In this document: positions 3,691 through 55,772 of the stretch, in pieces
Layout of the letters: the number at the start of each line of letters is the position of its first letter
Numbering within the stretch: position 1 is the stretch's first letter
IMG/VR virus record: IMGVR_UViG_3300022848_000005
DNA length: 64,000 nucleotides
Reading direction: 5' to 3' (one strand)
Origin: a virus
Lineage: Duplodnaviria; Caudoviricetes
Translations under genes and position numbers: made by a program
The notes under the pieces: generated by a model
What the model was told of the DNA's origin: nothing
The model's database searches: none
The model's input: only the letters and a program-made list of their open reading frames with translations

Positions 3691-3929
3691 AATTAGACGT
3701 ATTAACAGAAACATATTTGATCCTTAAAGAATATGTGCCTGCTAAGGATAGACAAGCGGCGGCAGATCAATTGTTAGGTAACTTAGTGGATATGGAAATG
3801 GCAGACGAAGAATTTGAAAAATTTTGTGGTACTGATTCTTATTTAAAAAATGCATCGGAGGATTATCTTAATGATGATACAGACGACGACGACGACAACA
3901 ATTTTGACGAATCTGACTCTGACACATAA
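3681..3929 (+). CDS. Small acidic hypothetical protein
   Basis: 82-aa ORF coupled to both neighbours; Asp-rich tail. Confidence 0.7.
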   Translation: MSIELDVLTETYLILKEYVPAKDRQAAADQLLGNLVDMEMADEEFEKFCGTDSYLKNASEDYLNDDTDDDDDNNFDESDSDT

Positions 3930-16326: not shown

Positions 16327-16341
16327 TATTTAATATAAATA
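16327..16341. promoter_or_regulatory. Back-to-back late promoter cores
   Basis: TATTTA 16327-16332 (minus, 6 nt before GTG 16320) and TATAAATA 16334-16341 (plus, 5 nt before ATG 16347). Confidence 0.6.
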
Positions 16342-16346
16342 CTATA

Positions 16347-17093
16347 ATGAGAGCATATCAATTTTTAACAGAAGGTCAAGGTGGATTAGCATACGAGGCG
16401 ACCGTATATGCCGCAATGCGAGCCGCTAAGATTAACGGTTTAGATTTAGGTGACAAGCCCACAGCAGGCTTTAGTAATCAAGGTTATGGTGATATCGAAG
16501 CAACATATAACGGTAAGCCTTTTAACATTGAAATCAAAGCCAGTGCATTCGATCAGATGGGAGGAACAAGTTTCCATTACAACATGGCTGGACAACAGTT
16601 AATTCCTGTAGGTCAGATAGAGCCTGATGAATTAGATATGTTGTTACAAGCCGCACAGACAAAAGCAGGCGATATAGATAACTTTCTTAAAGCCGCACAA
16701 GAATATGAAAATAATCCTAATATAACGGGGTTTCCTATTAGGGTCACTAAAGATACTAGAGAGAAACTAATAGCAGATGGCTTGCAAAAAGCAATAGCCA
16801 GTAATATTAGTGCTAAGTCTAGTTTTATTATAAAGCACTACAATAAAAAACAAGTGTATTATATACAAGTTGGTGGTTCTGGGCTATTTTACATGGGCAA
16901 GAATCCCCTTAAGTTGCCAGTACCAGAGCTACAAGGCGACATTAATATCGAATTAAGAGTAGGCTACGGTGGGTCAGGTGGTAAGCCCACAGTAACTGCT
17001 GGTATTAGACTGCAGGGTAGACTAAGAACTGAAAACGTTTCTAGTTTTACATTAGACGATCCAGGCAGTATCCAAGCATTATTCATGCAATAA
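16347..17093 (+). CDS. PD-(D/E)XK restriction-endonuclease-like protein with capsid-targeting-like N-terminus
   Basis: GLAYEATV, GYGDIEA, NIEIKAS; N-terminus MRAYQFLTE. Confidence 0.55.
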   Translation: MRAYQFLTEGQGGLAYEATVYAAMRAAKINGLDLGDKPTAGFSNQGYGDIEATYNGKPFNIEIKASAFDQMGGTSFHYNMAGQQLIPVGQIEPDELDMLLQAAQTKAGDIDNFLKAAQEYENNPNITGFPIRVTKDTREKLIADGLQKAIASNISAKSSFIIKHYNKKQVYYIQVGGSGLFYMGKNPLKLPVPELQGDINIELRVGYGGSGGKPTVTAGIRLQGRLRTENVSSFTLDDPGSIQALFMQ

Positions 17094-29272: not shown

Positions 29273-29815
29273 CTGACAACACAAAAACAAGCAGTGAAGA
29301 AGACTTTGACTGGTTCAGTAACAATGGTATTTTTATGCCAATGATCAACGACACTGGTAGGAACATTGCATATAAAAAAGCAATTGAGAAAATAGCGCCT
29401 GGCAGTATCATGTGTGACATAGGCACAGGTACAGGATTGTTAAGTATATTAGCCGCCAAAGCTGGAGCCAAAAAAGTCTACAGTATCGAAATGGACAAGG
29501 GCAGGGCTGAGTTTGCAATAAAAATAATTCAAAAACTTGGTCTTGACGATACTATACAAGTCATTAACAAAAATTTTTACAATTGCGACAGAAATGATAT
29601 CCCAGACGATGTGGATTATTTTGTTTCTGAAACAATTGGATCACAAATATTCGACGAAGAAATAATACAAATAGCCAACAAGTCAAAAGAGTAATGTAGA
29701 ACATACCATATGGGGTAGTCCTGCAAAAACAATTTTAGCCAGAGTAAGAAACACAAACGCCGATATAAAAATATGGTACGATCATAAAATAGAAAACTGG
29801 AGACTGAATTACTAA
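29269..29815 (+). pseudogene. Internally deleted, frameshifted PRMT-like paralog
   Basis: The N-terminal half stops at 29694; the +1 frame 29675-29815 resembles the C-terminus of the 27753 paralog and ends at TAATG with the next gene. Confidence 0.7.
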
Positions 29816-38236: not shown

Positions 38237-38871
38237 ACATTTTGCTAGTAGGTTGTGGTAAAAAGTTTGGTAGAACTATATTAGATAGTTTAGTGCAACG
38301 TGGACATAGTGTACACAGTATTAGCAGTGTGGACGTAGATGGTGTTAATAATATATTATTAGACTGGGATACTCTTAATCCTGCTGTAATAGAACGACAG
38401 TTACAACAGTTGCCCAGAATAGATTTTGTATTTTTTAACCACAATGGAAGTGCATTAAGTACTCAGAGCTTTGGCAAACTAAGCACACTGGAGTTATGGA
38501 AGTTGGGTAAGCGATGGAATCAGCAATACTACAATAGTGTTATATTTCCATTTCATCTTATACAGTCAATTACGTTAGATTTAAATGCAGTAGTAGCCTG
38601 GATGACAAGTTCTTATGTTTACAACCATGCAGATATCACACATAATGACTACATAGGGAATAAGTATCAGAGCTACCTTATAATGAAACAGTTTGGCAAC
38701 ACTGATCGAGCATGTTTTTGCGGCGTAAATCCTGACAGTCTTTATGATGCCAGTGTACAACCAGGTGAGTTTATTGAGGGCATGTACAAGTTAGATAGGC
38801 ACGAGTTAAACGGTTCTGTCATCGGTTTTGACTACACAAAAGATACACATTTTAACAAATTTAATGTATAA
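38233..38871 (+). CDS. SDR/Rossmann-like protein
   Basis: ILLVGCGKKFG; possible YxxxK (YIGNK). Confidence 0.5.
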   Translation: MNILLVGCGKKFGRTILDSLVQRGHSVHSISSVDVDGVNNILLDWDTLNPAVIERQLQQLPRIDFVFFNHNGSALSTQSFGKLSTLELWKLGKRWNQQYYNSVIFPFHLIQSITLDLNAVVAWMTSSYVYNHADITHNDYIGNKYQSYLIMKQFGNTDRACFCGVNPDSLYDASVQPGEFIEGMYKLDRHELNGSVIGFDYTKDTHFNKFNV

Positions 38872-38879
38872 TAATTAAT

Positions 38880-40250
38880 ATGAAGAATTACAGTGCAGAT
38901 TTACAAAAACTATTTTTAGAAATGATGATGGCAGACGCTCAAATGTTTGTGCGTGTTGGAAACATCTTTAACCCTGCTAACTTTGATAGAAGTCTACAGG
39001 ACACAGCCAGGTTTATACAAGAGTACACAGACAAACACAAGTCTCTGCCTAATAAAGATCAGGTAAAAGCAACATCTGGTGTAGAGCTTAAAGACGTTGG
39101 TGAAGTGCAGGAAGCACAACATGACTGGTTTCTAGAAGAATTTGAAGGATTTAGTCGCAGACAAGAACTTGAACGTGCCATACTGAAGGCGGCTGACTAC
39201 TTGGAAAAAGGTGACTATGATCCTGTTGAGAAATTAATTAAAGACGCAGTACAAATTAGTTTAACAAAAGATCTAGGCATAGACTATTTTGAGGATCCTA
39301 AGGCTAGACTTAGTTTACTAAGGGACAACAACGGACAAGTAAGTACAGGCTGGCCCACACTGGATAAGAAACTGTTTGGTGGCTTTAACAAAGGCGAGTT
39401 AAACATCTTTGCTGGTGGCAGTGGTAGTGGTAAGAGTTTGTTTATGCAAAACCTTGCTATTAACTGGATTATACAAGGACTTAACGGGGTATTCCTAACA
39501 CTAGAACTTAGTGAAGGCTTGTGTGCTATGCGTATAGACAGCATGTTGTCTAATGTCAGCACACGTGAAATATTTAAAGAGATCGATACTGTGGAGATGA
39601 AGATCAAAATGGTTGGTAAGAAGTCAGGTAGCCTACGCATCAAGTACATGCCGGCACAGAGCAACGTTAATCAAATTAGAGCGTACTTGAAAGAACTGGA
39701 AGTACAGACAGGACAAAAAGCAGACTTTATCATGGTAGACTATTTGGACTTGGTTATGCCAGTTAGTGCAAAGGTAAGTCCAAGTGACTTGTTTGTTAAA
39801 GACAAGTATGTGAGTGAAGAACTACGTAATCTAGCAAAAGAATTTAACATACTGATGGTAACCGCATCACAATTAAATCGCAGTGCGGTTGAAGAAATAG
39901 AATTTGATCATAGCCACATATCTGGTGGGTTAAGCAAAATAAATACTGCTGACAACGTGTTTGGTATATTTACGTCAAGAGCAATGCGTGAACGTGGACG
40001 ATATCAGATACAGTTAATGAAGACTCGTAGTTCTAGTGGTGTTGGACAAAAGATTGATTTAGAGTACAACATGGAGACGCTGAGAATTATCGACGCAGGT
40101 GAAGAAGAGCAGACTAACCAACGACAATCGGGTATTATGAATCAAATAAAAACAAAATCATCAACAACTACAGAAGCACCCAAGGTCACAGCTCAAGTCG
40201 ATAGTTCTAAGCTCAAGTCTATGTTGGCTGGGCTGAGGAAAGTTGAATAA
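38880..40250 (+). CDS. Replicative helicase (DnaB/gp41-like)
   Basis: GGSGSGKS, LELSE, VDYLDL, TASQLNR, MKTRSS. Confidence 0.93.
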   Translation: MKNYSADLQKLFLEMMMADAQMFVRVGNIFNPANFDRSLQDTARFIQEYTDKHKSLPNKDQVKATSGVELKDVGEVQEAQHDWFLEEFEGFSRRQELERAILKAADYLEKGDYDPVEKLIKDAVQISLTKDLGIDYFEDPKARLSLLRDNNGQVSTGWPTLDKKLFGGFNKGELNIFAGGSGSGKSLFMQNLAINWIIQGLNGVFLTLELSEGLCAMRIDSMLSNVSTREIFKEIDTVEMKIKMVGKKSGSLRIKYMPAQSNVNQIRAYLKELEVQTGQKADFIMVDYLDLVMPVSAKVSPSDLFVKDKYVSEELRNLAKEFNILMVTASQLNRSAVEEIEFDHSHISGGLSKINTADNVFGIFTSRAMRERGRYQIQLMKTRSSSGVGQKIDLEYNMETLRIIDAGEEEQTNQRQSGIMNQIKTKSSTTTEAPKVTAQVDSSKLKSMLAGLRKVE

Positions 40251-41955: not shown

Positions 41956-41963
41956 TATAAATA
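41956..41963 (+). promoter_or_regulatory. T4-type late promoter TATAAATA heading the 42-46 kb block
   Basis: Exact TATAAATA followed by a GGAG RBS. Confidence 0.7.
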
Positions 41964-41984: not shown

Positions 41985-42233
41985 GTGCAAAAGAAAACAA
42001 GAAGCCTATTAGATGAATTAGATATCTTTGTTTCACAAAGAGATAATAATGTTCTAATAGAGAACAGAGCCCACAATGTTATTCTAAGTGCGATAAACTT
42101 GCTACAGCACATAAAAGAAACTTATGACTCAGAGACTGCCGCAAACTTAGAAAAACGTTTGCTAAACAGCATACGCACCGGGGAACCAGAAAAGTTTACC
42201 AGGGGTATAAGGAGAGCCAAACGTGAAGGTTAA
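41985..42233 (+). CDS. Hypothetical late protein
   Basis: GTG start after GGAG. Confidence 0.7.
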   Translation: MQKKTRSLLDELDIFVSQRDNNVLIENRAHNVILSAINLLQHIKETYDSETAANLEKRLLNSIRTGEPEKFTRGIRRAKREG

Positions 42234-42492
42234 CGAGGTTGTTACAGAAGGCTGGAAAGATCTAGCATCACAGTTTGCTGGCGGACTTGCTGGAAAATCC
42301 GCTGACACTGTTAATTATGAAAAACAGAAAGCAGGAACAGAAAATGCAGAAAAAGAAAGAATACAAAAAGCGGCTAGAGAAAAAGGCATGTCAGTGCCAC
42401 AATACCTAGATTGGCTTAAAAAACAAGCAACAGCACAGGGTAGTAGTATTAGTCTTGACACTAATATTTCTGCCGCAAAAAAGGCGCATTAA
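42223..42492 (+). CDS. Putative internal head protein
   Basis: N-terminus MKVNEVVTE; AGGLAGKSA shared with the next ORF. Confidence 0.55.
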   Translation: MKVNEVVTEGWKDLASQFAGGLAGKSADTVNYEKQKAGTENAEKERIQKAAREKGMSVPQYLDWLKKQATAQGSSISLDTNISAAKKAH

Positions 42493-43082
42493 TGAAAGTT
42501 AAAGAATTATTTGAGGCAGGGTTGTGGGCACAAATCGCAGGTGGTTTGGCAGGCAAAAGTGCTGGGCAAATTGATCGTGAAGAGCGATCCTATACAAAAC
42601 AACAAAAAGCAAACCAAACTGCACAACAGTCAGTAACTAATACGCCTGTACAACAAAAAGCAAACCAAACTGCACAACAGTCTCCTGCACAACTTAATGC
42701 AAATTTAGATGCTAAAATAGCGTATGCAAAGTCTAGAGGCTGGATTGGATCGAGGCCTACTAATCAGGATAAAGCATATCTTGACAGTGTGGATGTTGAT
42801 ATAGATCCAAACAGATTTAACAACGTTGATCCTAAAACATTTTTTATACCACACCAACCTCTTCATGTAAAATCCGCCCTGGACGAATTTTCTGTATCAA
42901 CAGTTGAACTTAACAGGGCGTTGGGATTTAAGCATCAAGAAGAATTTAAAGGATACTCTACTATAACACTTACACCAGCAGGTTGGTACTCTGTAAACAG
43001 ACAAGCATATATTAACCCTAACAGTAAAGCACAGACTGTGATTGACATGTTCTATAATAGAAGCAAGGGCGGAACACGATGA
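42492..43082 (+). CDS. Putative internal head protein
   Basis: N-terminus MKVKELFE; AGGLAGKSA. Confidence 0.55.
   Translation: MKVKELFEAGLWAQIAGGLAGKSAGQIDREERSYTKQQKANQTAQQSVTNTPVQQKANQTAQQSPAQLNANLDAKIAYAKSRGWIGSRPTNQDKAYLDSVDVDIDPNRFNNVDPKTFFIPHQPLHVKSALDEFSVSTVELNRALGFKHQEEFKGYSTITLTPAGWYSVNRQAYINPNSKAQTVIDMFYNRSKGGTR
42599..42682 (+). repeat. 33-nt exact direct repeat, 51-nt period (QQKANQTAQQS x2)
   Basis: Copies at 42599 and 42650. Confidence 0.9.
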
Positions 43083-43777
43083 TATCAGAAGGTGGTAAAG
43101 CAATTCCTTCAGCACTGCCAGTTACACTTAAGAACTTTGATGCTGTTAAGAAGAACTTACAAAAGGCGTTACCACTTGGTATAGACATGTACGCTATTGG
43201 TTCAGCAGGCAAGAAAGAAGTTAGCAGTGACGTTGATGTTCTTATTGATGCCGAACAGTTACTAGACATATTTCCGTTAGATGACTTAAAACTAGCTAGA
43301 CAAGCATTGGAAAAACATTTCCAAAACATGGGGCTAGAAGCAAAACGCACTGGTGTTAGTATACACGTTGGCGTACCTAACGGTGAAGGCGGTGTGGCAC
43401 AAGTAGACTTAATGGCAGTTAATAATGCACAAGCGGCACAGCCATTGCATACACATGATTATACTGATCCCAACATGAAAGGTGGGACACTACATGCTAT
43501 GTGGGCAGACCTAGCAAACATGAGTGCGACACCTGAAGCAGAAAGTTTAATGATGAGTCCATACAAAGGACTAGTTAACAGGGAAACTAAGGAATTGGTC
43601 TCCAACAACAAAGATGAAATAGCAAAGATTATTATTGGTCCCAGTGCCACAGCAGACGACATGGGCAATCCCACAAAGTTACTAAAGGCATTGGAGCCCT
43701 ATCCTAAAAAGTACGACGCAATTAAAAACAAATACATGGCAACAGAGTGGAATCAAAAATGGCAGAACCTACAGTAG
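43079..43777 (+). CDS. Pol-beta superfamily nucleotidyltransferase
   Basis: IGSAGKKEVSSDVDV (GS...DxD) plus a third Asp in QVDLM. Confidence 0.75.
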   Translation: MISEGGKAIPSALPVTLKNFDAVKKNLQKALPLGIDMYAIGSAGKKEVSSDVDVLIDAEQLLDIFPLDDLKLARQALEKHFQNMGLEAKRTGVSIHVGVPNGEGGVAQVDLMAVNNAQAAQPLHTHDYTDPNMKGGTLHAMWADLANMSATPEAESLMMSPYKGLVNRETKELVSNNKDEIAKIIIGPSATADDMGNPTKLLKALEPYPKKYDAIKNKYMATEWNQKWQNLQ

Positions 43778-44874
43778 GCAGAAAGTATCAACACATTGAA
43801 GATCTGGTATTCACTAACGGCAGTCGTGGTGGACTACATGCTGTTGGGCGTCTTAAAGACATGCAAGAGTCCGGCGGTATAGAAATAAAGTGGGACGGAA
43901 TGCCTGTAGTGTACTGGGGAGAAGTTCACGGTAAGTTTACGGTTCTGATGAAGAATGCTCTTGCATACCTTAAGCGTGGTGTGAGAGAGGTTGGTGCAGG
44001 TATCCCTACACTGGCAACAGGACCGCAGGATGTAACAGACTTCGTAGCAGGTACAGGTAAGATTAAACCAGAACAACAAGATGCTAGACAGGCACTTGCT
44101 AAAGACATGGGTGCATTATGGCCTTACTTACGTAACGCAAGTCCTAAAAAGGGACTAGTGGAAGGTGGGTTATTGTTCCATCCAGGAAAGCCTGCTGTGT
44201 TAAACAAAGCAACAAACGAATACGAGTTCCAACCTAATGTAACAAAGTTTCATATTCCAGCAGACAGCAATTTAGGCAAGCGTATTGCTACTGCAACAAT
44301 CATGGTAGCGATTACTGGATACCAAGAAGACATAATGTCGCCTGAAGGTCGTCTGGATAATGTAGAGAAGTTAAGCACACCGGATGTCATTGTACAAGGC
44401 ACAGCGTATACTGAAGAAAAACCTAAACTTGACGACAAAGGGTTAGGTATTGTGGAACGTTATATTAGCAGTAATGCCAGTAAAATAGATGACTTTATTG
44501 GTGGCCAGTCAGGATTAAAAAGACCAGGCGATGTGTTATATAAGTTCTACAATCAGTCGCTTAGAATACCAGGTGCAAAGAAAGGTTTTACAGACTGGGT
44601 ACAAAATAACTTAAGTGCTGAGCAAGCACAAAAAGTTTTAAACCATCCTGGATTAGACGCTACGCTTAACGCAGTTGAAATGATAACAGGACAAAAGAAT
44701 CTGGTATTACAGCAGTTAGGGTCAGCAACACACGGTGATATCAGACAGACTAAACCAGAAGGTTATGTGCAAGCTCATCCAGGTAAAGAGTTTAAGGCTG
44801 ACTTACCGGGACAGTTTATTAAAATGATTGATCAACCGACTTGGACGCCTAACAGAGGCTTTAAAGATAAGTAG
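43759..44874 (+). CDS. Ligase/capping-enzyme-like covalent NTase (DUF6267-like)
   Basis: Motif I IKWDG; QHIEDL; C-terminal FIKMID. Confidence 0.6.
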   Translation: MAEPTVGRKYQHIEDLVFTNGSRGGLHAVGRLKDMQESGGIEIKWDGMPVVYWGEVHGKFTVLMKNALAYLKRGVREVGAGIPTLATGPQDVTDFVAGTGKIKPEQQDARQALAKDMGALWPYLRNASPKKGLVEGGLLFHPGKPAVLNKATNEYEFQPNVTKFHIPADSNLGKRIATATIMVAITGYQEDIMSPEGRLDNVEKLSTPDVIVQGTAYTEEKPKLDDKGLGIVERYISSNASKIDDFIGGQSGLKRPGDVLYKFYNQSLRIPGAKKGFTDWVQNNLSAEQAQKVLNHPGLDATLNAVEMITGQKNLVLQQLGSATHGDIRQTKPEGYVQAHPGKEFKADLPGQFIKMIDQPTWTPNRGFKDK

Positions 44875-44878
44875 TACT

Positions 44879-45469
44879 ATGAGAGCAAAAGAAATATTAA
44901 GAGAAGCACCAGAACAACGTGTAGCCTTTAGTTGGGGTAGGTTTCAGCCACCACACTTAGGACACGCAGAGGTGTTTAAGAAACTGGAGTCAGTAGGAAA
45001 CTATGGTTTCTGGATAGGCACGGGACAAACAACCGATCCTAAAAAGAATCCATTGCAGTATGCAGACAAAGTTGCTATACTGAAACAGATGTTTCCTGGG
45101 CACAGCGACAACATATTATCTGACCCCAGTATTAAGACAGTATACAATGCTATTGTAGCAATATATAACAAATACGATCCCAAAGAAGCAGAGAACATTA
45201 CTTTAGTTTTTGTTGGTGATCCAGAAAGAATTAACGACTTCGTTGGTAGTTTTAAAAAGTTTAATGGTGTTGAAGCACGTCATGGTTATTACAAGTTTAA
45301 AGATGTAACCGGATTTGCTAACACCGATAAAGGTGATGTGAGAGCAACAGATGTTCGAGGTGCAGTGCAGGCTAAGGACATGACAAAATTTCAACAACTT
45401 ACTGGTTTAACTGGTGAGTTGGCTCAGACAGTTTTTAACAAGGTAGCAAAGGGAATGGGCGTTGTTTGA
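44879..45469 (+). CDS. HxGH nucleotidyltransferase (cytidylyl/NMN-adenylyltransferase-like)
   Basis: GRFQPPHLGH; C-terminal RATDVR; start reassigned to ATG 44879 (MRAKEILRE), 5 nt after TAAGTA. Confidence 0.85.
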   Translation: MRAKEILREAPEQRVAFSWGRFQPPHLGHAEVFKKLESVGNYGFWIGTGQTTDPKKNPLQYADKVAILKQMFPGHSDNILSDPSIKTVYNAIVAIYNKYDPKEAENITLVFVGDPERINDFVGSFKKFNGVEARHGYYKFKDVTGFANTDKGDVRATDVRGAVQAKDMTKFQQLTGLTGELAQTVFNKVAKGMGVV

Positions 45470-46019
45470 CTTTATTCAAGAATTAAATGAAAGCAGGATT
45501 TTTAGGTACGAACACGACTTCGAGGGGATGTCTGCTCGTGACCTAGGTCATCTACTGTATCAAATTGTTATGATGTTGGAAATTATTAGACATTATGACA
45601 AAAACTGGGTTAAACAGTATGCTAAGAAGACATATCAGTTTGGGGGGTTTCCAGGAATGAAGGCTGCCCAAACTGATATGTACAATCTTATAAGTGTTGT
45701 TAATAACCAAGACAAATATGACACGTATTTAAAGACTGACAAGTCAGTGTATGTTCCTGACTTTGGCATCAAACGTTATTTGTTAGACATTATTAACGAT
45801 AATAGACACATCACCAGAGACAGAGCACTATTCACTAAACTAGAAGACACATTAAAAGTACAGGATAGTGCTCTTAAAAACATCAGACGCTTAGTAAGTT
45901 ACTGGGACAACTACAGTGACGCACAAAAGAAAACAACAGTAGTAAATCTTAGACAGAACGTTCGTTCTGACACTCCTTATATTGACGTATACTGGTCAAA
46001 ATTTAAAGAACTAGCATAA
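45462..46019 (+). CDS. Hypothetical, putative head-associated protein
   Basis: N-terminus MFDFIQELNE. Confidence 0.6.
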   Translation: MFDFIQELNESRIFRYEHDFEGMSARDLGHLLYQIVMMLEIIRHYDKNWVKQYAKKTYQFGGFPGMKAAQTDMYNLISVVNNQDKYDTYLKTDKSVYVPDFGIKRYLLDIINDNRHITRDRALFTKLEDTLKVQDSALKNIRRLVSYWDNYSDAQKKTTVVNLRQNVRSDTPYIDVYWSKFKELA

Positions 46020-46070
46020 ATAATAGTAAGTTAGCGAACAGGCTAATAATAAAATTTAAGGAGTTTTAAA

Positions 46071-46529
46071 ATGGCAGACGTAACAAGAGTACATGGTAAC
46101 GCACATGGTGTGGTTCATCAGGACAGAGGCCTCTCTGGTAGTGGAGCATTAAGTGGTGACGAGTTAGTAGTTAACATTGGTAGAAGTGCTAAGTTCTTTG
46201 GAATCGTTATTTACAACGCATCTGGATCAGGCGGCGCAGGTAATGTCGATCTACAAAACGAATTAGACGCTGGCGAATCAGTTGAAGCAATTCTTAAAGC
46301 AGTTGCGGCATCTACCGTTTCTAGCGTACAATACGGTGGTGAGATTTTAGCATATCAGGTACAAGACGATGCTAACGGTCAAATCAGCGTTATGGTTGCT
46401 GGTTCAAATTGGACAGGCGCAACATTGCAAACAGCAATTCGTGCATTAGGCGCAACAGTTGGTGGCAATTCAAAAGACGTAACAGGCACACTCGTAACAG
46501 ATACAGGCATGAAGTTAGCACTATCATAA
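46071..46529 (+). CDS. Putative abundant virion protein, paralog A
   Basis: TAAATA 46017-46022, AAGGAG RBS, Gly/Ala-rich; MADVTRVHG. Confidence 0.6.
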   Translation: MADVTRVHGNAHGVVHQDRGLSGSGALSGDELVVNIGRSAKFFGIVIYNASGSGGAGNVDLQNELDAGESVEAILKAVAASTVSSVQYGGEILAYQVQDDANGQISVMVAGSNWTGATLQTAIRALGATVGGNSKDVTGTLVTDTGMKLALS

Positions 46530-46548
46530 TTTAGAGTTTTAGTAACTT

Positions 46549-46582
46549 AAAAAAGGGCGCATATTATTTGCGCCTTTTTTTT
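46549..46582. terminator. Bidirectional-type intrinsic terminator
   Basis: A run-GGGCGCA-loop-TGCGCC-T run. Confidence 0.8.
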
Positions 46583-46590
46583 ATAACCAG

Positions 46591-46598
46591 TATAAATA
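46591..46598 (+). promoter_or_regulatory. T4-type late promoter TATAAATA
   Basis: Exact motif upstream of AAGGAG and ATG 46629. Confidence 0.75.
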
Positions 46599-46628
46599 CT
46601 ACAAATACATTTAATTAAGGAGTGACAA

Positions 46629-47060
46629 ATGGCAGATTTAACAAGAGTACACGGTAGCCCATCAGGTAACGTGTCATATGACAGATCAGTAGCAAACGTT
46701 GGTAACATCTCAGCAGACGAACTAGTAGATGTTGTAGGTCGTAAGTTAGACTTTTTCAAAATTGTTATTCAAAACGGTTCTAGTACTAACCAAGACTTGC
46801 GTTCAGAAATGGGACCTAACGAGTGTGTAGAAAAAGTTTTACAAATTATCCAAAACTACACAGACGGTACTAACGAAGGAACTGCAACTCTCGTAGCATA
46901 TCAGGTAGAAGGCGACGACACAGGACAAATCAGTGTTGCAGTTGAAGGTTCTAGCTGGACAGCGTCAGCATTGCAGGCGTCCATTCGTGCTACTACAACA
47001 TTGAACTCAATCAATGTTACAGGTACAGACGTTACAGCACCTGGGTTAGATTTAGCATAA
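46629..47060 (+). CDS. Putative abundant virion protein, paralog B
   Basis: MADLTRVHG; shares DLxxE, AYQV..DD.GQISV.V.GS.WT with paralog A. Confidence 0.6.
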   Translation: MADLTRVHGSPSGNVSYDRSVANVGNISADELVDVVGRKLDFFKIVIQNGSSTNQDLRSEMGPNECVEKVLQIIQNYTDGTNEGTATLVAYQVEGDDTGQISVAVEGSSWTASALQASIRATTTLNSINVTGTDVTAPGLDLA

Positions 47061-47081
47061 TACTAAATTAACACTATAAAT

Positions 47082-47112
47082 AAAAAGGCATACATTTTGT
47101 GTGCCTTTTTTT
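47082..47112 (+). terminator. Intrinsic terminator overlapping a TATAAATA (47075-47082)
   Basis: AAAAAGGCATAC-ATTTT-GTGTGCCTTTTT. Confidence 0.75.
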
Positions 47113-47529
47113 ATGCACTGTCAAAGTTTACATAGAGATTTAAGAATACAGCAAGTGCCCTTAACACAATTAAGTTCACTTTTTATACACCCCAACGAAC
47201 GTTTTAAATGGAAGGTTCTCCCAACGATGCGGGATCAAGGTATGTATTACCCATTAGCAGTGTGTAAGATAACAACGGAGTTGTTTAGTAAACAATTCTG
47301 GGGTAAACTTAAAGTAGATCCTGTAGTAAACGAGGATAATTTAGTCTGGGCAATTAAAATGGGAGCTAATAGATATGATGCCGCCCTTCATCTTGGATAT
47401 ACATCTATAGATGTAATTATACATCCCAATCTAAATGATTGTATTACCTGGGACCGTTACTTTAAGTATGTTAATCCTTTATTCAATAAAGATCCTGAGC
47501 CTTACCAGGCAAAGTTTACATATGAGTAA
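47113..47529 (+). CDS. ParB/Srx-like domain protein
   Basis: YPLAV...GANRYDAALHLGYTSIDV resembles ParB G.HR..AA..LG...I.V. Confidence 0.45.
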   Translation: MHCQSLHRDLRIQQVPLTQLSSLFIHPNERFKWKVLPTMRDQGMYYPLAVCKITTELFSKQFWGKLKVDPVVNEDNLVWAIKMGANRYDAALHLGYTSIDVIIHPNLNDCITWDRYFKYVNPLFNKDPEPYQAKFTYE

Positions 47530-48028
47530 AATACACGGTCATAGTGCAGGCAGTGTGGAAGGCAGAGGCAGTTGTGTAATTGATTGTTATACACTAGTGG
47601 ATATGACTAGAACAGGCGTAGTAGCATACTACAAAGAAGGCATGCCTATGTTCAATGATGATGCAGATCAACTAATTAATGACGAGAAGTCCTGGATTAG
47701 AAGCCGTAATCAACAACGTAACTACGAAACCTGCATACAAGTAATTAGTTTAAGGGCCCAACCTGTGTATCTGGAAGATCCTAAACGATTGCGTAAACAG
47801 GACATGTCGCTCTATAATTTTACTGATATCACAGGCACCCACGACATCTGGCATTTTAGTTTTAGTCCAGAACAGCCGGATGTATACAGAATAGGTGACG
47901 ATCCTGTTGCCGCTCTTAATAATGATACACACAATATACCTATAATAACTGGTTTACACGAAACAGCAGTAGTAGAAATACCCATACTACATATAGGTAT
48001 AAATATATATTACAAACTCAGGTGGTAA
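47522..48028 (+). CDS. Hypothetical protein
   Basis: Start reassigned to ATG 47522. Confidence 0.6.
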   Translation: MSKIHGHSAGSVEGRGSCVIDCYTLVDMTRTGVVAYYKEGMPMFNDDADQLINDEKSWIRSRNQQRNYETCIQVISLRAQPVYLEDPKRLRKQDMSLYNFTDITGTHDIWHFSFSPEQPDVYRIGDDPVAALNNDTHNIPIITGLHETAVVEIPILHIGINIYYKLRW

Positions 48029-48133
48029 AAGGAATAAATACTTGGGTAATAAACGGCACATATACTAGGCACTCACTACTCTGGCACTATCAACAGGCAT
48101 AGCTCTATCAGTTTTAACTTACATAGGAAGAGA

Positions 48134-48424
48134 GTGGTGACAATTAAACAACAAACAATCGAGAAGAAAAATCTTTCCGCCCACGTAGATTTATGTGCCG
48201 AAAGGTACAAAGAATTGAACATTAATTTTAAAATCCTAGAGAACCGATTAGATTCTTTATCTACCCACTTGTTGGGTCTGAAAGAGGACATGAATAAGGT
48301 CACAGCCCGCATTAATAACCGCATCTTAACTATTGCAGGTACTACTATTGCTGTTATGACCACTGCTGTTATAGCCTTAGTGCTGAAACTAATTGATGTT
48401 ATTTCAATCATGCCTGTATCCTAA
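48134..48424 (+). CDS. Coiled-coil protein with C-terminal TM (holin/XhlA-like topology)
   Basis: Heptad region followed by a hydrophobic tail; TAAATA at 48035. Confidence 0.5.
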   Translation: MVTIKQQTIEKKNLSAHVDLCAERYKELNINFKILENRLDSLSTHLLGLKEDMNKVTARINNRILTIAGTTIAVMTTAVIALVLKLIDVISIMPVS

Positions 48425-48426
48425 AT

Positions 48427-48903
48427 GTGAAAACTCAAACAGCAATAAAACTTAAACAGTCAGCAAAAAAACTTAAACAGTTTACTACTAAGCATCTGCC
48501 AGATATATTATTCAATAGCCCTGATATAATTTGGGCCAAGGAAGATAATAGTCTTATGGTAGGAGAACTGCGTGTTTATAAGAATAAACACGGTACCTAC
48601 TCAGTAAATCTAGCTGGTGGCAAGGTATGTAATTTCTATAAACAAAAACATGCGGTATGTTATGCCAGTTATTACCAACTATGCAACCTCAATCGCTGTA
48701 GTAATATTGCTATTTTAGACAGTAAATTAGAAAATTACACACAAGATGTAGAGTACTACAAACAACAACTAACACTACACTACAAAAACAACAATAAGGA
48801 TAAGTTTTTGCTATACTATGCTAGATATAGTCAAGCTCTTCCAATCAAGAAACAAACCGAACAGGAATGTAAGAAAAGTATCTTTCTGGCTAAATATAAT
48901 TAA
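48427..48903 (+). CDS. Hypothetical protein
   Basis: ORF track. Confidence 0.6.
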   Translation: MKTQTAIKLKQSAKKLKQFTTKHLPDILFNSPDIIWAKEDNSLMVGELRVYKNKHGTYSVNLAGGKVCNFYKQKHAVCYASYYQLCNLNRCSNIAILDSKLENYTQDVEYYKQQLTLHYKNNNKDKFLLYYARYSQALPIKKQTEQECKKSIFLAKYN

Positions 48904-48920
48904 ATTTAGGAATTCTTAAT

Positions 48921-49553
48921 ATGCAACTTAACGACTTAAAGAGAAAAAACACAAAAAAAGTAATGGAAAGCAGATTTGGCTTTGCTGTTAACTTTGATAG
49001 AATGACAGTGGAAAAAGCGGAAGGGTTGTTAGAAACAATTTCTTCTGGTATGGAGAACGTCCGTAACAGCAGTTCTTTCCACACAGCCGAAAAGAACCCA
49101 CGTTATATGGAACTTTTAATGGTTAAAGAGAGTCTAACTGACTGGTTAGATGACACAGTTGAAGTAGTGGTAGAAGGTGAAGTACAAACTGCTGAAGTTC
49201 TGTTAGCTGCCAAGGACATTACAGATAGATTACAAGGTATGGTAGAGGATTTGGGAGAAATTCTAAACGAAGATCTTCCACCATTAGGCGATAGCATTAA
49301 TGACCAGATGGGCGGAGGCAAAGGCACACAGTATGTTAATTCAGCAAGCGCCACAATCCAGGGGTTATTAGATGCAATGACGGCCGCACGAATGTCATTA
49401 GACGATGCAAGTAAAATCGTTACTGGTGAAGGTCCTGATCCTGCAATGGCAGGTGAGATGCCCGTAGAAGAGCCTGCAATGGCAGATATGCCAGAAGAAG
49501 AGCCTATGATAGAGCCTGAAGAGGACGAGCCAGTCGGCAGAGAAATGCGCTAA
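48921..49553 (+). CDS. Acidic late protein, possible prohead core/scaffold
   Basis: TAAATA 48891, AGGA RBS; Glu/Pro-rich tail. Confidence 0.5.
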   Translation: MQLNDLKRKNTKKVMESRFGFAVNFDRMTVEKAEGLLETISSGMENVRNSSSFHTAEKNPRYMELLMVKESLTDWLDDTVEVVVEGEVQTAEVLLAAKDITDRLQGMVEDLGEILNEDLPPLGDSINDQMGGGKGTQYVNSASATIQGLLDAMTAARMSLDDASKIVTGEGPDPAMAGEMPVEEPAMADMPEEEPMIEPEEDEPVGREMR

Positions 49554-49900
49554 TGCGTTTTTCAGAGTTACATGAAGATCAACAGGAGCTAGTCTCAAAG
49601 CTGGCTTCTGTCCTTGAGTTCCTTAAAGGTCGATCTCAAGATAGCGGCTTACAGCCAAATATCACTTTAAACAGTCTAGTAAAAATGGTTGGCAATACAG
49701 GAACACAAATTGATCCTAATACAATACAACAGTTGTTTAACGAGCCAACAATACGAAACCTAATTAAAAATATAGACGGTAACATGGTTACTCTTAATTT
49801 AGATGGTGGAATGACCCAATTACAGCCTGGTGGTGGCAACATGCCTCCTGAGGTTAAAGTTAACCAAATGGCAAAAAGAGCATTGAGTCGTAGACAATAA
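49553..49900 (+). CDS. Hypothetical late protein
   Basis: N-terminus MRFSELHE. Confidence 0.6.
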   Translation: MRFSELHEDQQELVSKLASVLEFLKGRSQDSGLQPNITLNSLVKMVGNTGTQIDPNTIQQLFNEPTIRNLIKNIDGNMVTLNLDGGMTQLQPGGGNMPPEVKVNQMAKRALSRRQ

Positions 49901-49911
49901 TCTGTTATAAT
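49883..49911 (+). promoter_or_regulatory. Sigma70 extended -10 promoter, leaderless
   Basis: TTGAGT-17 nt-TATAAT with TGn; ATG 6 nt downstream. Confidence 0.7.
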
Positions 49912-49917
49912 ACACAC

Positions 49918-50232
49918 ATGATTACATTTACCCCCCGAGCATACGATCACTTTTACAAGTACGTAAGTGATAATAAAACCCTACGAATAAGTTTTAAACA
50001 ACAAGGCTGTACTGGTTATAGTTATCAACTTGACTGGCTCGATCACATACCAGAAGGCTTCAAGGTTAGTAAGCAAGGTGATGTAACTTATACATGGGAC
50101 CCTGTGCATGAAGACTGGCTTACCGGCACAACTGTAGACATGCAAGTTAAAGGTCTTAATAATTTATTAGTATTCCTAAACCCTAACGAAATAGCTAGTT
50201 GTGGGTGCGGGGAAAGTGTTACTTTTAAATAA
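49918..50232 (+). CDS. iscA: IscA/HesB Fe-S cluster assembly protein
   Basis: GCTGYSY and CGCGES. Confidence 0.9.
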   Translation: MITFTPRAYDHFYKYVSDNKTLRISFKQQGCTGYSYQLDWLDHIPEGFKVSKQGDVTYTWDPVHEDWLTGTTVDMQVKGLNNLLVFLNPNEIASCGCGESVTFK

Positions 50233-50252
50233 ATACACTAAAGGATACTAGC

Positions 50253-50612
50253 ATGGCATTTTTACCAACATCAGCAAACGCAAGAGAACAATCGCAAGGC
50301 AACGCCGTAGTTGCTGGCGAGATTGCAATCTTAACACAGCGTGTACTAATCGCAATTAGTTCGGGTGTGTTTACTATTACTGCCACAAGTGCAACCACTA
50401 TTACTATTAACGGTACCACTATTACTGGCAGTGTAATGACCAACGCTGATGCAACAGGTAGAGAATATTACACAGCCTGGCAAGGCACAACGACAGATGC
50501 AGTAAAAACCGAGCAGATGACAGAAGTTATCTCGCATTTTCAAAAACTAGGATATGCTATTGTCCGCAAATCAACAACAGGTACTGAGCTATATTGGCAA
50601 ATGTCCTGGTAA
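50253..50612 (+). CDS. Putative structural protein
   Basis: TAAATA x2 at 50226-50235; Thr-rich. Confidence 0.5.
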   Translation: MAFLPTSANAREQSQGNAVVAGEIAILTQRVLIAISSGVFTITATSATTITINGTTITGSVMTNADATGREYYTAWQGTTTDAVKTEQMTEVISHFQKLGYAIVRKSTTGTELYWQMSW

Positions 50613-50615
50613 TCG

Positions 50616-51290
50616 ATGATCACAGACCGATACGAATACGTAAGAATCAATAGAAAAAACATAGACGGAAAAAGACATTACCTCACACCAGAGGGAGATG
50701 CTGTTCCATCTGTAACTACTGTTCTTGATAAAACTAAACCTGCTGAAAAAATGCAGGCACTAATGAACTGGCGAAAGCGTGTAGGTGAAACCAAAGCACA
50801 ACAGATAGTAACTGAAGCCGCCAACGTTGGTACAGTTCTACACAAAAAACTAGAAGAATACTGTTTAGGTACACTGGAAGCACCAGGTAGTAACCTTATA
50901 CAACAACAAGCAGACAAGATGGCTCGTGTGGTTATTGACACTGGGCTAACGGATATGAATGAGTGTTGGGGGGTAGAGGTTCCTTTGTACTACTCGGGGC
51001 TATATGCTGGCACAACAGACTGTGTGTGCATGTTTAAAGGTGAGCCTGCTGTCTTAGACTTTAAACAAACGAACAAGCCTAAAAAACGTGAATGGATTGA
51101 GGATTACTTCCTGCAATTAAGTGCGTATATTTTAGCACACGACAAAACACACAACACCGAGATTAAACGTGGTGTGATTTTAATGTGTTCAAGAGATTTA
51201 ACCTACCAACAGTTTGAGATCGAAGGTGACGAACTAGAGTTCTGGAAACAGAAATGGTGGGATAGAGTAGAGCAATATTATAATAAATAA
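50616..51290 (+). CDS. PD-(D/E)XK exonuclease
   Basis: PSVTTVL, GTVLH, YAGTTDC, LDFKQT, QLSAY. Confidence 0.88.
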   Translation: MITDRYEYVRINRKNIDGKRHYLTPEGDAVPSVTTVLDKTKPAEKMQALMNWRKRVGETKAQQIVTEAANVGTVLHKKLEEYCLGTLEAPGSNLIQQQADKMARVVIDTGLTDMNECWGVEVPLYYSGLYAGTTDCVCMFKGEPAVLDFKQTNKPKKREWIEDYFLQLSAYILAHDKTHNTEIKRGVILMCSRDLTYQQFEIEGDELEFWKQKWWDRVEQYYNK

Positions 51291-51318
51291 GTAAAATACA
51301 TTAGTAAGGACTCCTAAC

Positions 51319-52911: not shown

Positions 52912-53457
52912 ATGATCTGGCAGCACCAAAAAATTTCAGAGTGCGTGAGTGATCTTCCTTTAGGCGCAAGATTCAAAAGAAAACATTTGATGATGCACTA
53001 CGGAAAACAGTCAGCCTATGGTCATATGCTCCTATAATAAACACCTGTATGGACTTTACGGGTCATAAGTCCTGGCCTGATCCCTGGGAACTATTAGAGG
53101 ACTCTGGCTATGATGAATTTGCTAAAGCTCTTGGTATGCTGTATACTTTGTTTTTAAGTGGACACGATGATCATAGCAGCTATGTTATAATAATATTACT
53201 TAATTGGGTTATAGTAACATTTAAGCCGCATCTTTTGGATAGTATCCAAAAAAACTTGTATATAACCCACTATGTATTATTAATAGGGTTAAACAGGGAC
53301 CAGGGAAAATATTACTATATAGTATCTGTCAGACGATGGAAAATATATACTTAATTATGAGTGGGACAGTGTAGTAAATACTCAACAAATAGATCCAGGG
53401 GTTAAAATAATGTACCAATACACTCCTCAAGATTTACATTTAGACCAATATATGTGA
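52912..53457 (+). pseudogene. Disrupted gene upstream of nrdA
   Basis: MIWQHQK, then a frame change, an in-frame TGA at 52950, a long frame through WPDPWELL, an AT-rich palindromic segment, and a second frame change to DDGKYILNY...LDQYM*. Confidence 0.6.
53205..53269. repeat. Nested inverted repeats
   Basis: TGGGTTATA/TATAACCCA (53205, 53261) enclosing TTTTGGATA-G-TATCCAAAA (53233-53251). Confidence 0.85.
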
Positions 53458-53464
53458 GGCATCA

Positions 53465-55759
53465 ATGAGCAAAATTTTAGTAACGAAACGAGAAGGTCAC
53501 AAAGAACCTCTAAACATAGAAAAAATGCATAAAGTTGTCATGTGGGCAACCGACGGAATTACAGGCGTAAGTGCCAGCGAAGTGGAAATAAAATCAAGCC
53601 TACAGTTTTATGATGGTATTAAGACATCAGATGTCCAGGAAACACTTATTAAAAGTGCCGCTGATCTTATTTCAGAGGAGAACCCTAACTACCAGTATGT
53701 TGCTGGTAGGCTAATAAACTATCATATCAGAAAACAAGTTTATAACGATTACGATCCCTGGGACCTAAAGCGTATTGTGGAAGCAAACGTGAAACGTGGC
53801 TATTATGATAGTGAATTGTTAGAGGTATACTCAACTGAAGAATGGAAAAAGTTAAACAGTTACATTAATCACGAGCGAGATGAAAACTTTACCTATGTTG
53901 CTATGGAACAGTTTAGGGGAAAATATCTTGTACAGAATCGTGTAACTAAAGATTTGTACGAAACTCCACAAGTGTGTTACATGTTAATTGCGGCAACCCT
54001 GTTCCAAAACTATCCTAAAGAAACAAGATTACAATGGGTACATGATTATTACGATGCTATTAGTACCCACTTGATTAGTTTACCAACTCCTGTTATGGCA
54101 GGTGTACGCACACCGCAAAAACAATTCAGCAGTTGTGTATTAATCGAAACAGATGACAGTCTAGATAGTATTAATGCAACAGCGAGTGCTATTGTAAAAT
54201 ATGTTTCGCAAAAGGCAGGTATTGGCATCGGCGCAGGTCGCATCCGTGCTATTAACTCACCAGTGCGTAATGGTGATGCGTCCCACACAGGTGTTATCCC
54301 GTTTCTTAAATTATTCCAGAGTGCAGTGAAGTCATGTAGTCAGGGCGGGGTTCGTGGTGGAGCGGCAACAATATACTATCCATTATGGCACCTAGAAGTA
54401 GAAGATTTGTTAGTATTAAAGAACAACAAAGGCACAGAAGATAACAGAGTACGCCACATGGATTATGGGGTTCAATTTAACAAATTAATGTACGAAAGAC
54501 TTATCCAAGGGGGAGATATTACCCTGTTTTCGCCCAACGATGTACCGGAATTGTACGAAGCATTCTATGTTAACGCCGACAAGTTTAAAGAGTTGTATGA
54601 GCAAGCAGAGCGTAAAACAAGTATACGCAAAAAGAAAGTTAAAGCAATTGATCTGTTTACTGCCTTTATGCAAGAACGCAAGGATACAGGGCGTGTCTAC
54701 TTAATGAACGTTGACCATGCTAATACACACTCACCGTTTAAACCAGATGTAGCACCTATTAGGCAGAGTAACTTATGTTGCGAAATTGACTTGCCTACTA
54801 AACCTCTTAAAAGTTTTGAGGATCCAGACGGTAGAATAGCATTATGTACACTAAGTGCAATTAACTGGGGTGCTATTAAGACACCTGAAGATTTTGAGAA
54901 ACCCTGTAGGTTAGCAGTACGTGGATTAGATGCCTTACTGAGCTATCAGGGATATCCAGTAAAGGCGGCAGAAGAAGCAACCCGAGAATACAGACCACTA
55001 GGTGTGGGTATTATTAATCTTGCTTACTGGTTAGCAAAGAACGACACGAGCTACAGTGATCCTCGAGCATTGGAATTAGTAGATCAATATGCAGAAGCAT
55101 GGAGTTACTATTTAATTAGAGCAAGCATGGAACTTGCTAAAGAATTTGGTCGATGTGATGGGTTCCAAAACTTAAAGTATGCAGATGGCATACTACCAAT
55201 CGATACTTACAAACGTGATGTGGATGAACTTGTTAAGCCCAAAAAACGACAGTTTGATTGGGACTACTTGCGCAAAGAGATTAAAGAACATGGTATACGT
55301 AATGCAACCCTAATGGCATTGATGCCTGCAGAAACGAGTGCTCAGATTAGTAATGCTACTAATGGTATTGAGCCACCACGTAGTTTTGTTAGCGTTAAGC
55401 AGAGCAAGGACGGGGTACTTAAGCAGGTAGTGCCTGAGTATCGTCGACTTAAGAATAAATATGAATTGCTGTGGGATCAAAGAGATCCAACTGGTTACAT
55501 AAAAATCATGGCAGTATTACAGAAGTACATCGATCAAGGTATTAGTGTTAACACCAGTTACAATCCACAGTGGTATGAAGATGAAAAGATACCAATGAGT
55601 GATATGCTAAAACATCTTATGATGTTTTATAAGTACGGTGGCAAGCAGTTGTATTACTTCAACACCTATGATGGTCAAGGTGAAATAGATGTTAATAAAC
55701 TAGAAGAACTACAACCTGGTGAGTTAGATGACGAAGCCTGCGAAAGTTGCGTAATATAA
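53465..55759 (+). CDS. nrdA: Class Ia ribonucleotide reductase alpha subunit
   Basis: ATP cone VTKREG, QFSSC, SQGGVRGG, SNLCCEI, C-terminal CESC. Confidence 0.97.
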   Translation: MSKILVTKREGHKEPLNIEKMHKVVMWATDGITGVSASEVEIKSSLQFYDGIKTSDVQETLIKSAADLISEENPNYQYVAGRLINYHIRKQVYNDYDPWDLKRIVEANVKRGYYDSELLEVYSTEEWKKLNSYINHERDENFTYVAMEQFRGKYLVQNRVTKDLYETPQVCYMLIAATLFQNYPKETRLQWVHDYYDAISTHLISLPTPVMAGVRTPQKQFSSCVLIETDDSLDSINATASAIVKYVSQKAGIGIGAGRIRAINSPVRNGDASHTGVIPFLKLFQSAVKSCSQGGVRGGAATIYYPLWHLEVEDLLVLKNNKGTEDNRVRHMDYGVQFNKLMYERLIQGGDITLFSPNDVPELYEAFYVNADKFKELYEQAERKTSIRKKKVKAIDLFTAFMQERKDTGRVYLMNVDHANTHSPFKPDVAPIRQSNLCCEIDLPTKPLKSFEDPDGRIALCTLSAINWGAIKTPEDFEKPCRLAVRGLDALLSYQGYPVKAAEEATREYRPLGVGIINLAYWLAKNDTSYSDPRALELVDQYAEAWSYYLIRASMELAKEFGRCDGFQNLKYADGILPIDTYKRDVDELVKPKKRQFDWDYLRKEIKEHGIRNATLMALMPAETSAQISNATNGIEPPRSFVSVKQSKDGVLKQVVPEYRRLKNKYELLWDQRDPTGYIKIMAVLQKYIDQGISVNTSYNPQWYEDEKIPMSDMLKHLMMFYKYGGKQLYYFNTYDGQGEIDVNKLEELQPGELDDEACESCVI

Positions 55760-55772
55760 CCCGAGTGTAATT

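Follow-up and report, generated by a model that had tools for sequence, protein, structure and literature searches.

Several late proteins encoded in a 64,000-nucleotide window of viral DNA (IMG/VR virus record IMGVR_UViG_3300022848_000005) begin with a common short N-terminal sequence, hereafter called the tag, and these tags are probably propeptides of the bacteriophage T4 capsid-targeting type, by which the proteins would be cut and held in the phage head. By analogy with T4, about a dozen unrelated late proteins are probably loaded into the capsid in this way, and the tagged set of this phage has been estimated at about 12-15 proteins. The window corresponds to bases 197450-261449 of a single contig of 289,070 bp with 39% G+C, for which CheckV gives a completeness of about 80%. 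The major capsid protein shares 64-68% identity with its counterparts in PA5oct, GAP32, CBB, related RaK2-like phages and one Vibrio phage. The source is an uncultured T4-type jumbo myovirus whose nearest characterised relatives are PA5oct and the RaK2-like phages (capsid protein identity 64-66%). A megablast search of window positions 42000-50000 against GenBank phages returned no match. Genes are named here by the window coordinate of their first base; positions 29491, 32529, 34231, 152393, 185682, 187243 and 188615 lie outside the window and follow the genome numbering. All genome-wide counts refer to a set of 364 genes called with a simple custom caller.

Seven tagged N-termini had been proposed in a first-pass annotation made from the sequence alone (genes 16347, 42223, 42492, 43079, 44879, 45462 and 49553), and all their start codons and peptides were found at these coordinates (Table 1). 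The start codons of 42223 and 45462 are GTG and TTG, respectively, and for 44879 the start is an ATG inside a longer open frame, 5 nt past the preceding stop. In all seven proteins the presumptive cut site is (L/I/V/F)-x-E followed by a small residue, which is the cleavage context of the T4 protease gp21, and the tag ends at residues 8-10, or at residue 4 in 43079. The loose rule by which they had been recognized, a hydrophobic-x-Glu among the early residues, does not stand as a defining mark, as it is not above chance: [ILVMF]-x-E occurs in the first 11 residues of 65 of the 364 genes (18%). An all-versus-all BLOSUM scoring of residues 2-10 of all proteins, carried out with no prior pattern and with four control windows deeper in the proteins, revealed 53 pairs with a score of at least 18, compared to 18-29 pairs in the control windows. 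The largest cluster includes 16347, 42223, 42492, 44879 and 49553 together with genome genes 32529, 34231 and 188615 and one further, probably false member, and a second small cluster of 11-residue variants is formed by genome genes 185682 and 187243 and window gene 45462. Five of the seven proposed genes are in the main cluster, with 43079 (MISE-then-G) and 45462 (MFDFIQELNE-then-S) as weaker variants outside it.

When a strict pattern was used (M, 3-4 residues, E/D/Q, two hydrophobic residues, an optional residue, E and then G/A/S/D), 11 of the 364 N-termini matched, whereas internal positions predict 0.41 matches and shuffled N-termini 0.45. In short form the family reads M-[K/R]-x-x-[E/Q/D]-hydrophobic-hydrophobic-x-E with G/A/S/D next. 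A scan of every start codon in the window gave one extra match, the small open reading frame (ORF) at 3681-3929, which encodes 82 residues, starts with MSIELDVLTE-then-T and fits a relaxed form of the tag pattern. The proteins had also been described as otherwise unrelated, and this is correct for their mature parts in general; the one exception is the pair 42223 and 42492, whose similarity extends past the tag and marks them as paralogues (E = 3e-4). A repeated DNA cassette was considered as the origin of the common N-termini and was rejected, because the tagged genes agree at no more than 23 of their first 30 nt.

The genome encodes a prohead protease of the gp21 type (Peptidase_S77, PF03420; E = 1.4e-27) together with a major capsid protein of the Gp23 type (E = 1.1e-99). 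The protease residues aligned with H85 and S140 of T4 gp21, which we take to be the catalytic residues, are invariant in the alignment. At the capsid maturation site, FLTE-then-AEIGG of T4 gp23 aligns with HLAE42-then-SATGG in this phage and with FLVE-then-NASAG in PA5oct, and the capsid protein is 34% identical to that of T4 over the aligned N-terminal segments. The propeptides in the T4 record NC_000866 are MKTYQEFIAE-then-A (ipII and ipIII), which agrees with the leader quoted for the T4 internal proteins in the first-pass annotation, MAKINELLRE-then-S (gp24), MELITELFDE-then-D (Alt), MLKEQLIAE-then-A (gp22) and MNEPQLLIE-then-T (gp21). When all 364 N-termini were scored against these T4 propeptides, leaving the strict pattern unused, the top scores corresponded to 185682, 34231, 42223, the protease itself, 44879 and 188615, and six N-termini reached a score of at least 18, compared to 1-4 in the control windows. 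The T4 sequence most similar to several of the tags is that of gp24. The first ten residues of T4 IPIII are sufficient for packaging, and within the T4 tag positions 4 and 7 are of importance to targeting, and 8 and 10 to processing (PMC9026906). At the targeting positions, 16347 displays Y4 and F6-L7; others have a hydrophobic pair at residues 6-7 and no aromatic residue at position 4, with a register one residue off that of T4. A 72-residue protein with the start MLLNEFLKKDE-then-G and a late promoter upstream is encoded at genome 152393-152611, between the portal and protease genes, which is the position of gp67 in T4.

The sequence ATAAATA, proposed as the late promoter of the RaK2-like phages CBB and GAP32 (PMC5259590), is rarer than chance in the window (16 copies vs 25 expected), with 8 of the 16 copies falling between 41957 and 51289, and 33 of the 67 copies in the genome are located at most 60 nt upstream of a start codon. 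Genome-wide, 9 of the 11 strictly tagged genes fall in ATAAATA-headed units, as opposed to 64 of the 353 other genes (18%; simple operon rule; Fisher p = 1.3e-5). The description of the tagged genes as mostly behind TAAATA promoters holds only at the operon level; as for a direct upstream position, it applies to 16347 alone. Gene 49553 lies downstream of ATAAATA copies at 47999 and 48034, and terminator-like sites were absent from the + strand within the block 41985-46019. From this promoter motif, the tagged genes are classed as late genes. Nine ATAAATA motifs end 5 nt ahead of a start codon (window 16335, genome 34219 and 152378, and six more), which leaves no space for a ribosome-binding site, and these late mRNAs may be leaderless or nearly so. 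A second class of ATAAATA copies has a spacing of 20-30 nt and a GGAG sequence.

The tags are also found in relatives of this phage. In a contig about 85% identical (L009) every tag is kept, including the TTG start and the N-terminus of 45462, and a single gene starting MKIKELTEG replaces the 42223/42492 pair, with the tag conserved and the next ~70 residues diverged. Three distant contigs found through DUF6267 are rich in tag-like starts (MKIKELLSEA, MKFTDLITES, MRAYEFIIEG, MRSYEFINEG, MKILDLLSEA, MRILDILAED and MRINEIVPEH), and in 83 related contigs (848 kb) the strict tag is present on 50 of 1073 called genes, compared to 1.7 expected, in 10 unrelated families of which DUF6267, with 20 members, is the largest. 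The homologues of 16347 (at least 120, 43-88% identical) mostly start with MK[T/S]FKxY[L/I/V]xE[T/S]. In the alignment of 105 sequences of this nuclease family (the query and 104 homologues), the Glu preceding the cut is kept in 103 of 104, an aromatic-type residue (Y/F/H) and an aliphatic one (L/I/V) stand just ahead of it, and the other tag positions vary; the commonest tags have F at residue 4 (MK[T/S]FK...). In the family of the nucleotidyltransferase 43079 (252 homologues), E4-G5-G6 is invariant in 24 aligned members after a start of 3-6 residues, and some homologues carry a longer leader, such as MRFKEF...LIE-then-GG.

A fusion protein of 908 residues encoded in another relative (L012:7194-9920) joins the nucleotidyltransferase, DUF6267 and the HxGH enzyme behind a single 29-residue leader ending LVE-then-GG, so that the three neighbouring window genes 43079, 43747 and 44879 appear to form one functional module. 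In contig L010 the same three proteins are encoded by separate genes, with the starts MILHE-then-GG, MKIKELLSE-then-A and MLLRNLFE-then-A. One leader on the fused chain and a tag on each of the split genes is what would be expected if every separate polypeptide needs its own address. These two relatives also encode tagged VanY-LysM and glycoside-hydrolase-19 proteins.

Evidence from virions was obtained from PA5oct, taking as virion proteins the 93 that carry 'ESI-MS/MS' notes in GenBank MK797984 (PMC7318152). Six of the 8 most T4-like N-termini of PA5oct belong to virion-detected proteins, compared to 20% overall (p about 0.001-0.004). Among them are gp150, a 73-residue protein at the T4 gp67 position (MKINDIITE-then-G), and gp238 (VKIKDILVE-then-S), whose place corresponds to that of 49553 in the window. 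Window positions 41985-51300 are syntenic with PA5oct gp225-gp241, the block following the helicase gene, and 11 of the 14 genes gp226-gp239 encode virion-detected proteins; 48921 and 50253 have homologues among the PA5oct virion proteins of this syntenic block. The profile of the nucleotidyltransferase 43079 matches in PA5oct only gp231 (E = 0.0015; pairwise E = 0.001), a virion protein of similar size and place. BLASTP and iterated profile searches for direct PA5oct orthologues of the seven proteins gave none, except for weak matches of 43079 and 44879.

Some of the tagged proteins resemble enzymes. The model of 16347 (pLDDT 83.7) is disordered at residues 1-10 (AlphaFold pLDDT <50) and folds from residue 11, and a VIA-align comparison with HhaI (6uke_X) gave Z = 11.0 and rmsd 4.5 over 185 residues (Foldseek E = 2e-3), the next structural matches being at Z of 6.7 or less and mostly other PD-(D/E)xK nucleases. 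All full-length homologues retain D49, E51, E62 and K64, and from its model the protein is predicted to have an HhaI-like PD-(D/E)xK nuclease fold that carries the D...(D/E)-x-K catalytic triad. The model of 43079 (pLDDT 89.4) matched Pol lambda and Pol mu (Foldseek E = 1.7e-6, TM 0.53), with residues 1-4 outside the fold (AlphaFold pLDDT <50), and its sequence contains the motif GSAGKKEVSSDVDV (G-S...D-x-D palm), so this protein is a predicted family-X-polymerase-like nucleotidyltransferase. A putative enzyme of the cytidylyltransferase/NMN adenylyltransferase (NMNAT) superfamily is encoded by 44879, as indicated by matches to PF01467 (E = 3.5e-8), to the PHROG 'cytidyltransferase' (E = 3.6e-23) and to the archaeal NMNAT 1f9a (E = 8.5e-5); its tag is a ~10-residue extension that precedes the first strand and the HxGH of the motif GRFQPPHLGH. 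Sequence searches of the PDB with DUF6267 and with the nucleotidyltransferase profile gave nothing significant. Outside the window, genome 29491-32235 (L015:3491-6235) encodes a glucosaminidase-LysM protein of 914 amino acids that starts with MNVFDLFKE-then-S and has its own late promoter, which makes it a candidate head- or virion-borne wall hydrolase. Genes 42223, 42492, 45462 and 49553 encode small, basic proteins (pI 9.3-9.7) outside known families, a character that matches that of the T4 internal proteins.

From these results we infer for this phage a sequence of core binding, cleavage, packaging and ejection, in which the late-made proteins would bind the prohead scaffolding core through an amphipathic leader of 8-11 residues, the gp21-type prohead protease would cleave hydrophobic-x-Glu behind its Glu, the matured proteins would remain in the head beside the DNA, and some of them at least would exit with the DNA at infection. 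Delivery with the DNA is likely at least for the enzymes. The core of the first-pass proposal, a T4-type capsid-targeting and protease N-terminus on late proteins, is sustained by the protease, the capsid site, the likeness to T4 propeptides, the late units, the relatives and PA5oct, and fails in its form as a loose rule. The further idea that the tag identifies the injected cargo has not been upheld, since DUF6267 (43747) is untagged in this phage though 20 of its homologues are tagged, and most PA5oct virion proteins lack a tag-like N-terminus.

Several observations weigh against the interpretation of the tags as T4-type propeptides. The strict pattern was composed after the data had been inspected, the independent T4-derived score gives no more than a 2- to 6-fold excess, and the gene starts rest on a simple custom caller. 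The tags of 44879, 49553 and 34231 are followed by P, or by D and then Q, positions that may not suit the protease; the tag of 43079 has just four residues, and its invariant E-G-G could belong to the fold and not to a cut site. DUF6267, in the middle of the block, is untagged, starts with MESKMAEPTV and overlaps the end of 43079, and in relatives it is either tagged (20 members, such as MKIKELLSE-then-A) or fused behind the nucleotidyltransferase. Concerning PA5oct, none of the seven proteins has a clear virion-detected orthologue, the links being by gene position or weak profile match. Across all PA5oct proteins T4-likeness shows no difference between detected and undetected ones (Mann-Whitney p = 0.13-0.39), with the top ranks alone enriched, and the virion list also includes ribonucleotide reductase and other likely contaminants.

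Among the alternatives, the tags could be true protease propeptides whose bearers serve mainly in assembly, as core or scaffold, decoration or head-internal structural proteins, and would be broken down or remain in the capsid instead of acting as delivered effectors. T4 gp22, gp67, gp68, gp21 and gp24 have similar N-termini and are not effectors, the protein at the gp67 position (genome 152393) and the protease of this phage score as tag-like, and several tagged proteins are small, basic and outside known families, so that some of the small basic ones may indeed be core or scaffold components rather than effectors. However, enzymes whose catalytic motifs are intact also bear the tag (the nuclease, the NMNAT-like enzyme and the 914-amino-acid wall hydrolase), a late nuclease or wall hydrolase has no obvious assembly role, and in T4 the same tag serves delivered proteins, namely Alt and the internal proteins, all of which makes this explanation unlikely for the set as a whole. 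A chance origin, in which N-terminal biases such as Lys at position 2, A-rich codons favouring initiation and amphipathic first helices produce similar starts with no common function, would agree with the 18% of genes that fit the loose motif, with the frequency of M-K/R starts and with the A/T-rich tag codons. It is nevertheless very improbable given that the strict pattern is enriched about 25-fold at the N-termini compared to internal positions and shuffles, and 29-fold in relatives, that conservation falls on the Glu and hydrophobic pair within residues 6-9 and not on position 2, and that the tags are concentrated in late units and match the cleavage context of the capsid protein. Reading of the tag by a machine other than the prohead, for example a chaperone or a Clp-type protease adaptor, a radical-SAM peptide modifier, or a membrane or secretion route, could be suggested by the radical-SAM enzyme encoded at 37106-38236 of the window and by the Clp components of PA5oct-type phages. 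We give it equally little credence, as the tag is T4-like with the protease motif at its end, this context recurs at the capsid maturation site, tagged PA5oct proteins are present in virions, and the tags lack Cys or any other typical modification site.

For the tagged nuclease 16347 a more specific role is proposed tentatively, at odds that we place somewhat below even: a late-made, tag-packaged endonuclease of the restriction type, delivered to cut host or rival-phage DNA at CGCG or at a site containing CGCG, with the phage protected by purging CGCG from its genome and not by methylation. The whole genome contains 9 CGCG sites against 203 expected (observed/expected 0.044), at genome positions 15407, 18813, 53911, 62018, 91205, 142808, 156165, 177299 and 259177, and the ratio is 0.87 in PA5oct and 1.04 in T4. 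Other words are also depleted in the genome, namely GCAGC (27 vs 168 expected), AGCGCT, AAGCTT, GTGCAC, GGCC and AGCT. Among the contigs with a 16347 homologue and at least 5 CGCG expected, 54 of 62 are almost devoid of this sequence (2 observed vs 799 expected in all), while 5 of 68 related contigs chosen through the nucleotidyltransferase are almost CGCG-free, 4 of these 5 being close kin of this phage; the association between nuclease and CGCG avoidance has a Fisher p = 7e-22, a statistic that ignores relatedness. In the tree of 58 distinct nucleases, the CGCG-normal contigs correspond to one supported clade and one other row, that is, two changes compared to 9.3 in shuffles. In this CGCG-normal clade no other 4-6-mer was clearly depleted when an altered specificity was sought. 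The nuclease was not found in five long related CGCG-normal records; a positive control detected it in 5 of 5 records. ATAAATA is present in 27 of 50 distinct upstream regions of nuclease homologues, compared to 9.4% of genes generally.

No match to m5C or N4/N6 DNA methyltransferases (PF00145, PF01555) was found in the genome, a record about 80% complete, and self-protection by methylation was set aside within that limit; because no cognate methyltransferase was found, 16347 has not been classed as part of a restriction-modification system. Self-protection by 7-deazaguanine DNA was likewise rejected, as no TGT/DpdA or QueC gene was found. A search for bacterial nuclease homologues located beside a methyltransferase gave one match, on a binned contig. 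A shared host restriction system that causes the CGCG avoidance, with the nuclease merely travelling with that lineage, remains a rival cause. The nearest analogue for the possible role of 16347 is provided by the restriction endonucleases of chloroviruses, which are virus-encoded, late and packaged. Carried in virions, these enzymes are believed to break down host DNA within five minutes of entry (PMC7019647); they were reportedly described by Agarkova et al. in 2006. Chloroviruses, however, are eukaryotic viruses with cognate methyltransferases, whereas in this phage no methyltransferase was found, the genome is nearly CGCG-free, and both packaging and activity are predictions.

Table 1. Coordinates in the window of the nuclease locus, the late block and their promoters
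Feature	Position	Strand	Remarks
Exact T4-type late promoter TATAAATA	16334..16341	+	5 nt ahead of the nuclease gene ATG; mRNA may be leaderless or nearly so
248-aa predicted HhaI-like PD-(D/E)xK nuclease, MRAYQFLTE-then-G start	16347..17093	+	Best tag in the window
Exact TATAAATA	41956..41963	+	Heads block 41985-46019
82-aa first gene of the late block, untagged	41985..42233	+	Homologue of PA5oct gp225
89-aa basic protein (pI 9.5), MKVNEVVTE-then-G start	42223..42492	+	Paralogue of 42492
196-aa basic protein, MKVKELFE-then-A start	42492..43082	+	Paralogue of 42223
232-aa predicted PolX-like nucleotidyltransferase, GS...DVD motif, MISE-then-GG start	43079..43777	+	
375-aa DUF6267 protein, KxDG ligase-like motif, untagged here	43747..44874	+	
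196-aa putative cytidylyltransferase/NMNAT-like enzyme, MRAKEILRE-then-A start	44879..45469	+	
185-aa basic protein, TTG start, MFDFIQELNE-then-S (weaker 11-residue variant)	45462..46019	+	
210-aa untagged protein	48921..49553	+	Homologue of PA5oct gp237 (virion-detected); synteny anchor
115-aa basic protein, MRFSELHE-then-D start	49553..49900	+	At PA5oct gp238 position

The tag block of the window is flanked by genes for replication and nucleotide metabolism, which include a primase, a DnaB-type helicase (38865-40250), an exonuclease (50616) and ribonucleotide reductase (53444-56903). Two paralogous, untagged proteins of ~150 residues with the start MAD[V/L]TRVHG are encoded at 46071-46529 and 46629-47060, each with its own ATAAATA upstream. 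Their N-termini resemble those of PA5oct gp233 and gp234 (..KVHG and ..KIHG), which have a matching place and are virion-detected, although BLASTP gave no match between them; for the two window proteins a place in the capsid or elsewhere on the virion surface is probable. A second common N-terminus, MA[R/K]Q.[I/L/M]N.G, is found on four or five proteins of 128-671 residues (genome 2966, 3362, 192077 and 265950) and may serve tail or fibre proteins as a shared module for attachment.

The closest known system is that of the T4 internal proteins, in which, as in this phage, a tag is carried by otherwise unrelated late proteins and a gp21-type protease is encoded (compare MRAYQFLTE-then-G with MKTYQEFIAE-then-A). 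The T4 capsid targeting sequence was reportedly described by Mullaney and Black in 1996. The tags of this phage differ in being mostly one residue shorter and in standing on more and larger proteins, which include nuclease-like and nucleotidyl-transfer enzymes and a wall hydrolase, and they are known here from sequence. The phage itself is a distant relative of T4. In T4 IPI, IPII, IPIII and Alt the targeting sequence is a leader of 9-11 residues of the form M-K/R-x-aromatic/x-Q/E-hydrophobic-hydrophobic-x-E, followed by a small residue, and the tags described above are alike in form (PMC3012670, PMC9026906). The hydrophobic-x-E cleavage context is also common to the propeptides of the T4 head proteins gp24, gp22, gp21, gp67, gp68 and gp23, the bearers in T4 being structural or scaffold proteins, whereas here enzymes are included as well. 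PA5oct and the RaK2-like phages share the ATAAATA late motif, the syntenic virion block and the tag-like gp150 and gp238 (PMC7318152, MK797984; PMC5259590), but most of the cargo genes of this phage are not shared with PA5oct. The passages searched in PMC7318152 and PMC5259590 contain no mention of propeptides or targeting tags. In phiKZ, 201phi2-1 and SPN3US a diverged gp21-like protease cleaves many of the proteins inside the head behind a Glu, and an ejected protein bolus is delivered (PMC5694885, PMC7411985, PMC10052503); this processing belongs to another lineage, with a small-x-E motif and long propeptides and without a short common N-terminal tag. The idea that myoviruses load enzymes into their heads for early action is shared with the MuF-fused and polyvalent head-packaged effectors described by Iyer, Aravind and co-workers (PMC9503650), which are loaded by fusion to a structural domain, whereas loading by a short cleavable tag is proposed here.

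The principle was established with T4 in the 1990s and its generality was already anticipated by reviewers of work on T4, so that the gain lies in scope and cargo rather than mechanism. Should the tag function as it does in T4, then for a large group of uncultured aquatic phages of the T4 type the head-packaged proteome would become readable from sequence. Candidates for first-minute effectors would then be the nuclease, nucleotidyl-transfer and ligase-like enzymes, wall hydrolases and small basic proteins, and short natural tags would be at hand to try for loading foreign proteins into phages other than those of coli. The reading proposed for the nuclease predicts cleavage at CGCG and, if it is true, this enzyme would be a phage counterpart of the packaged restriction enzymes of chloroviruses.

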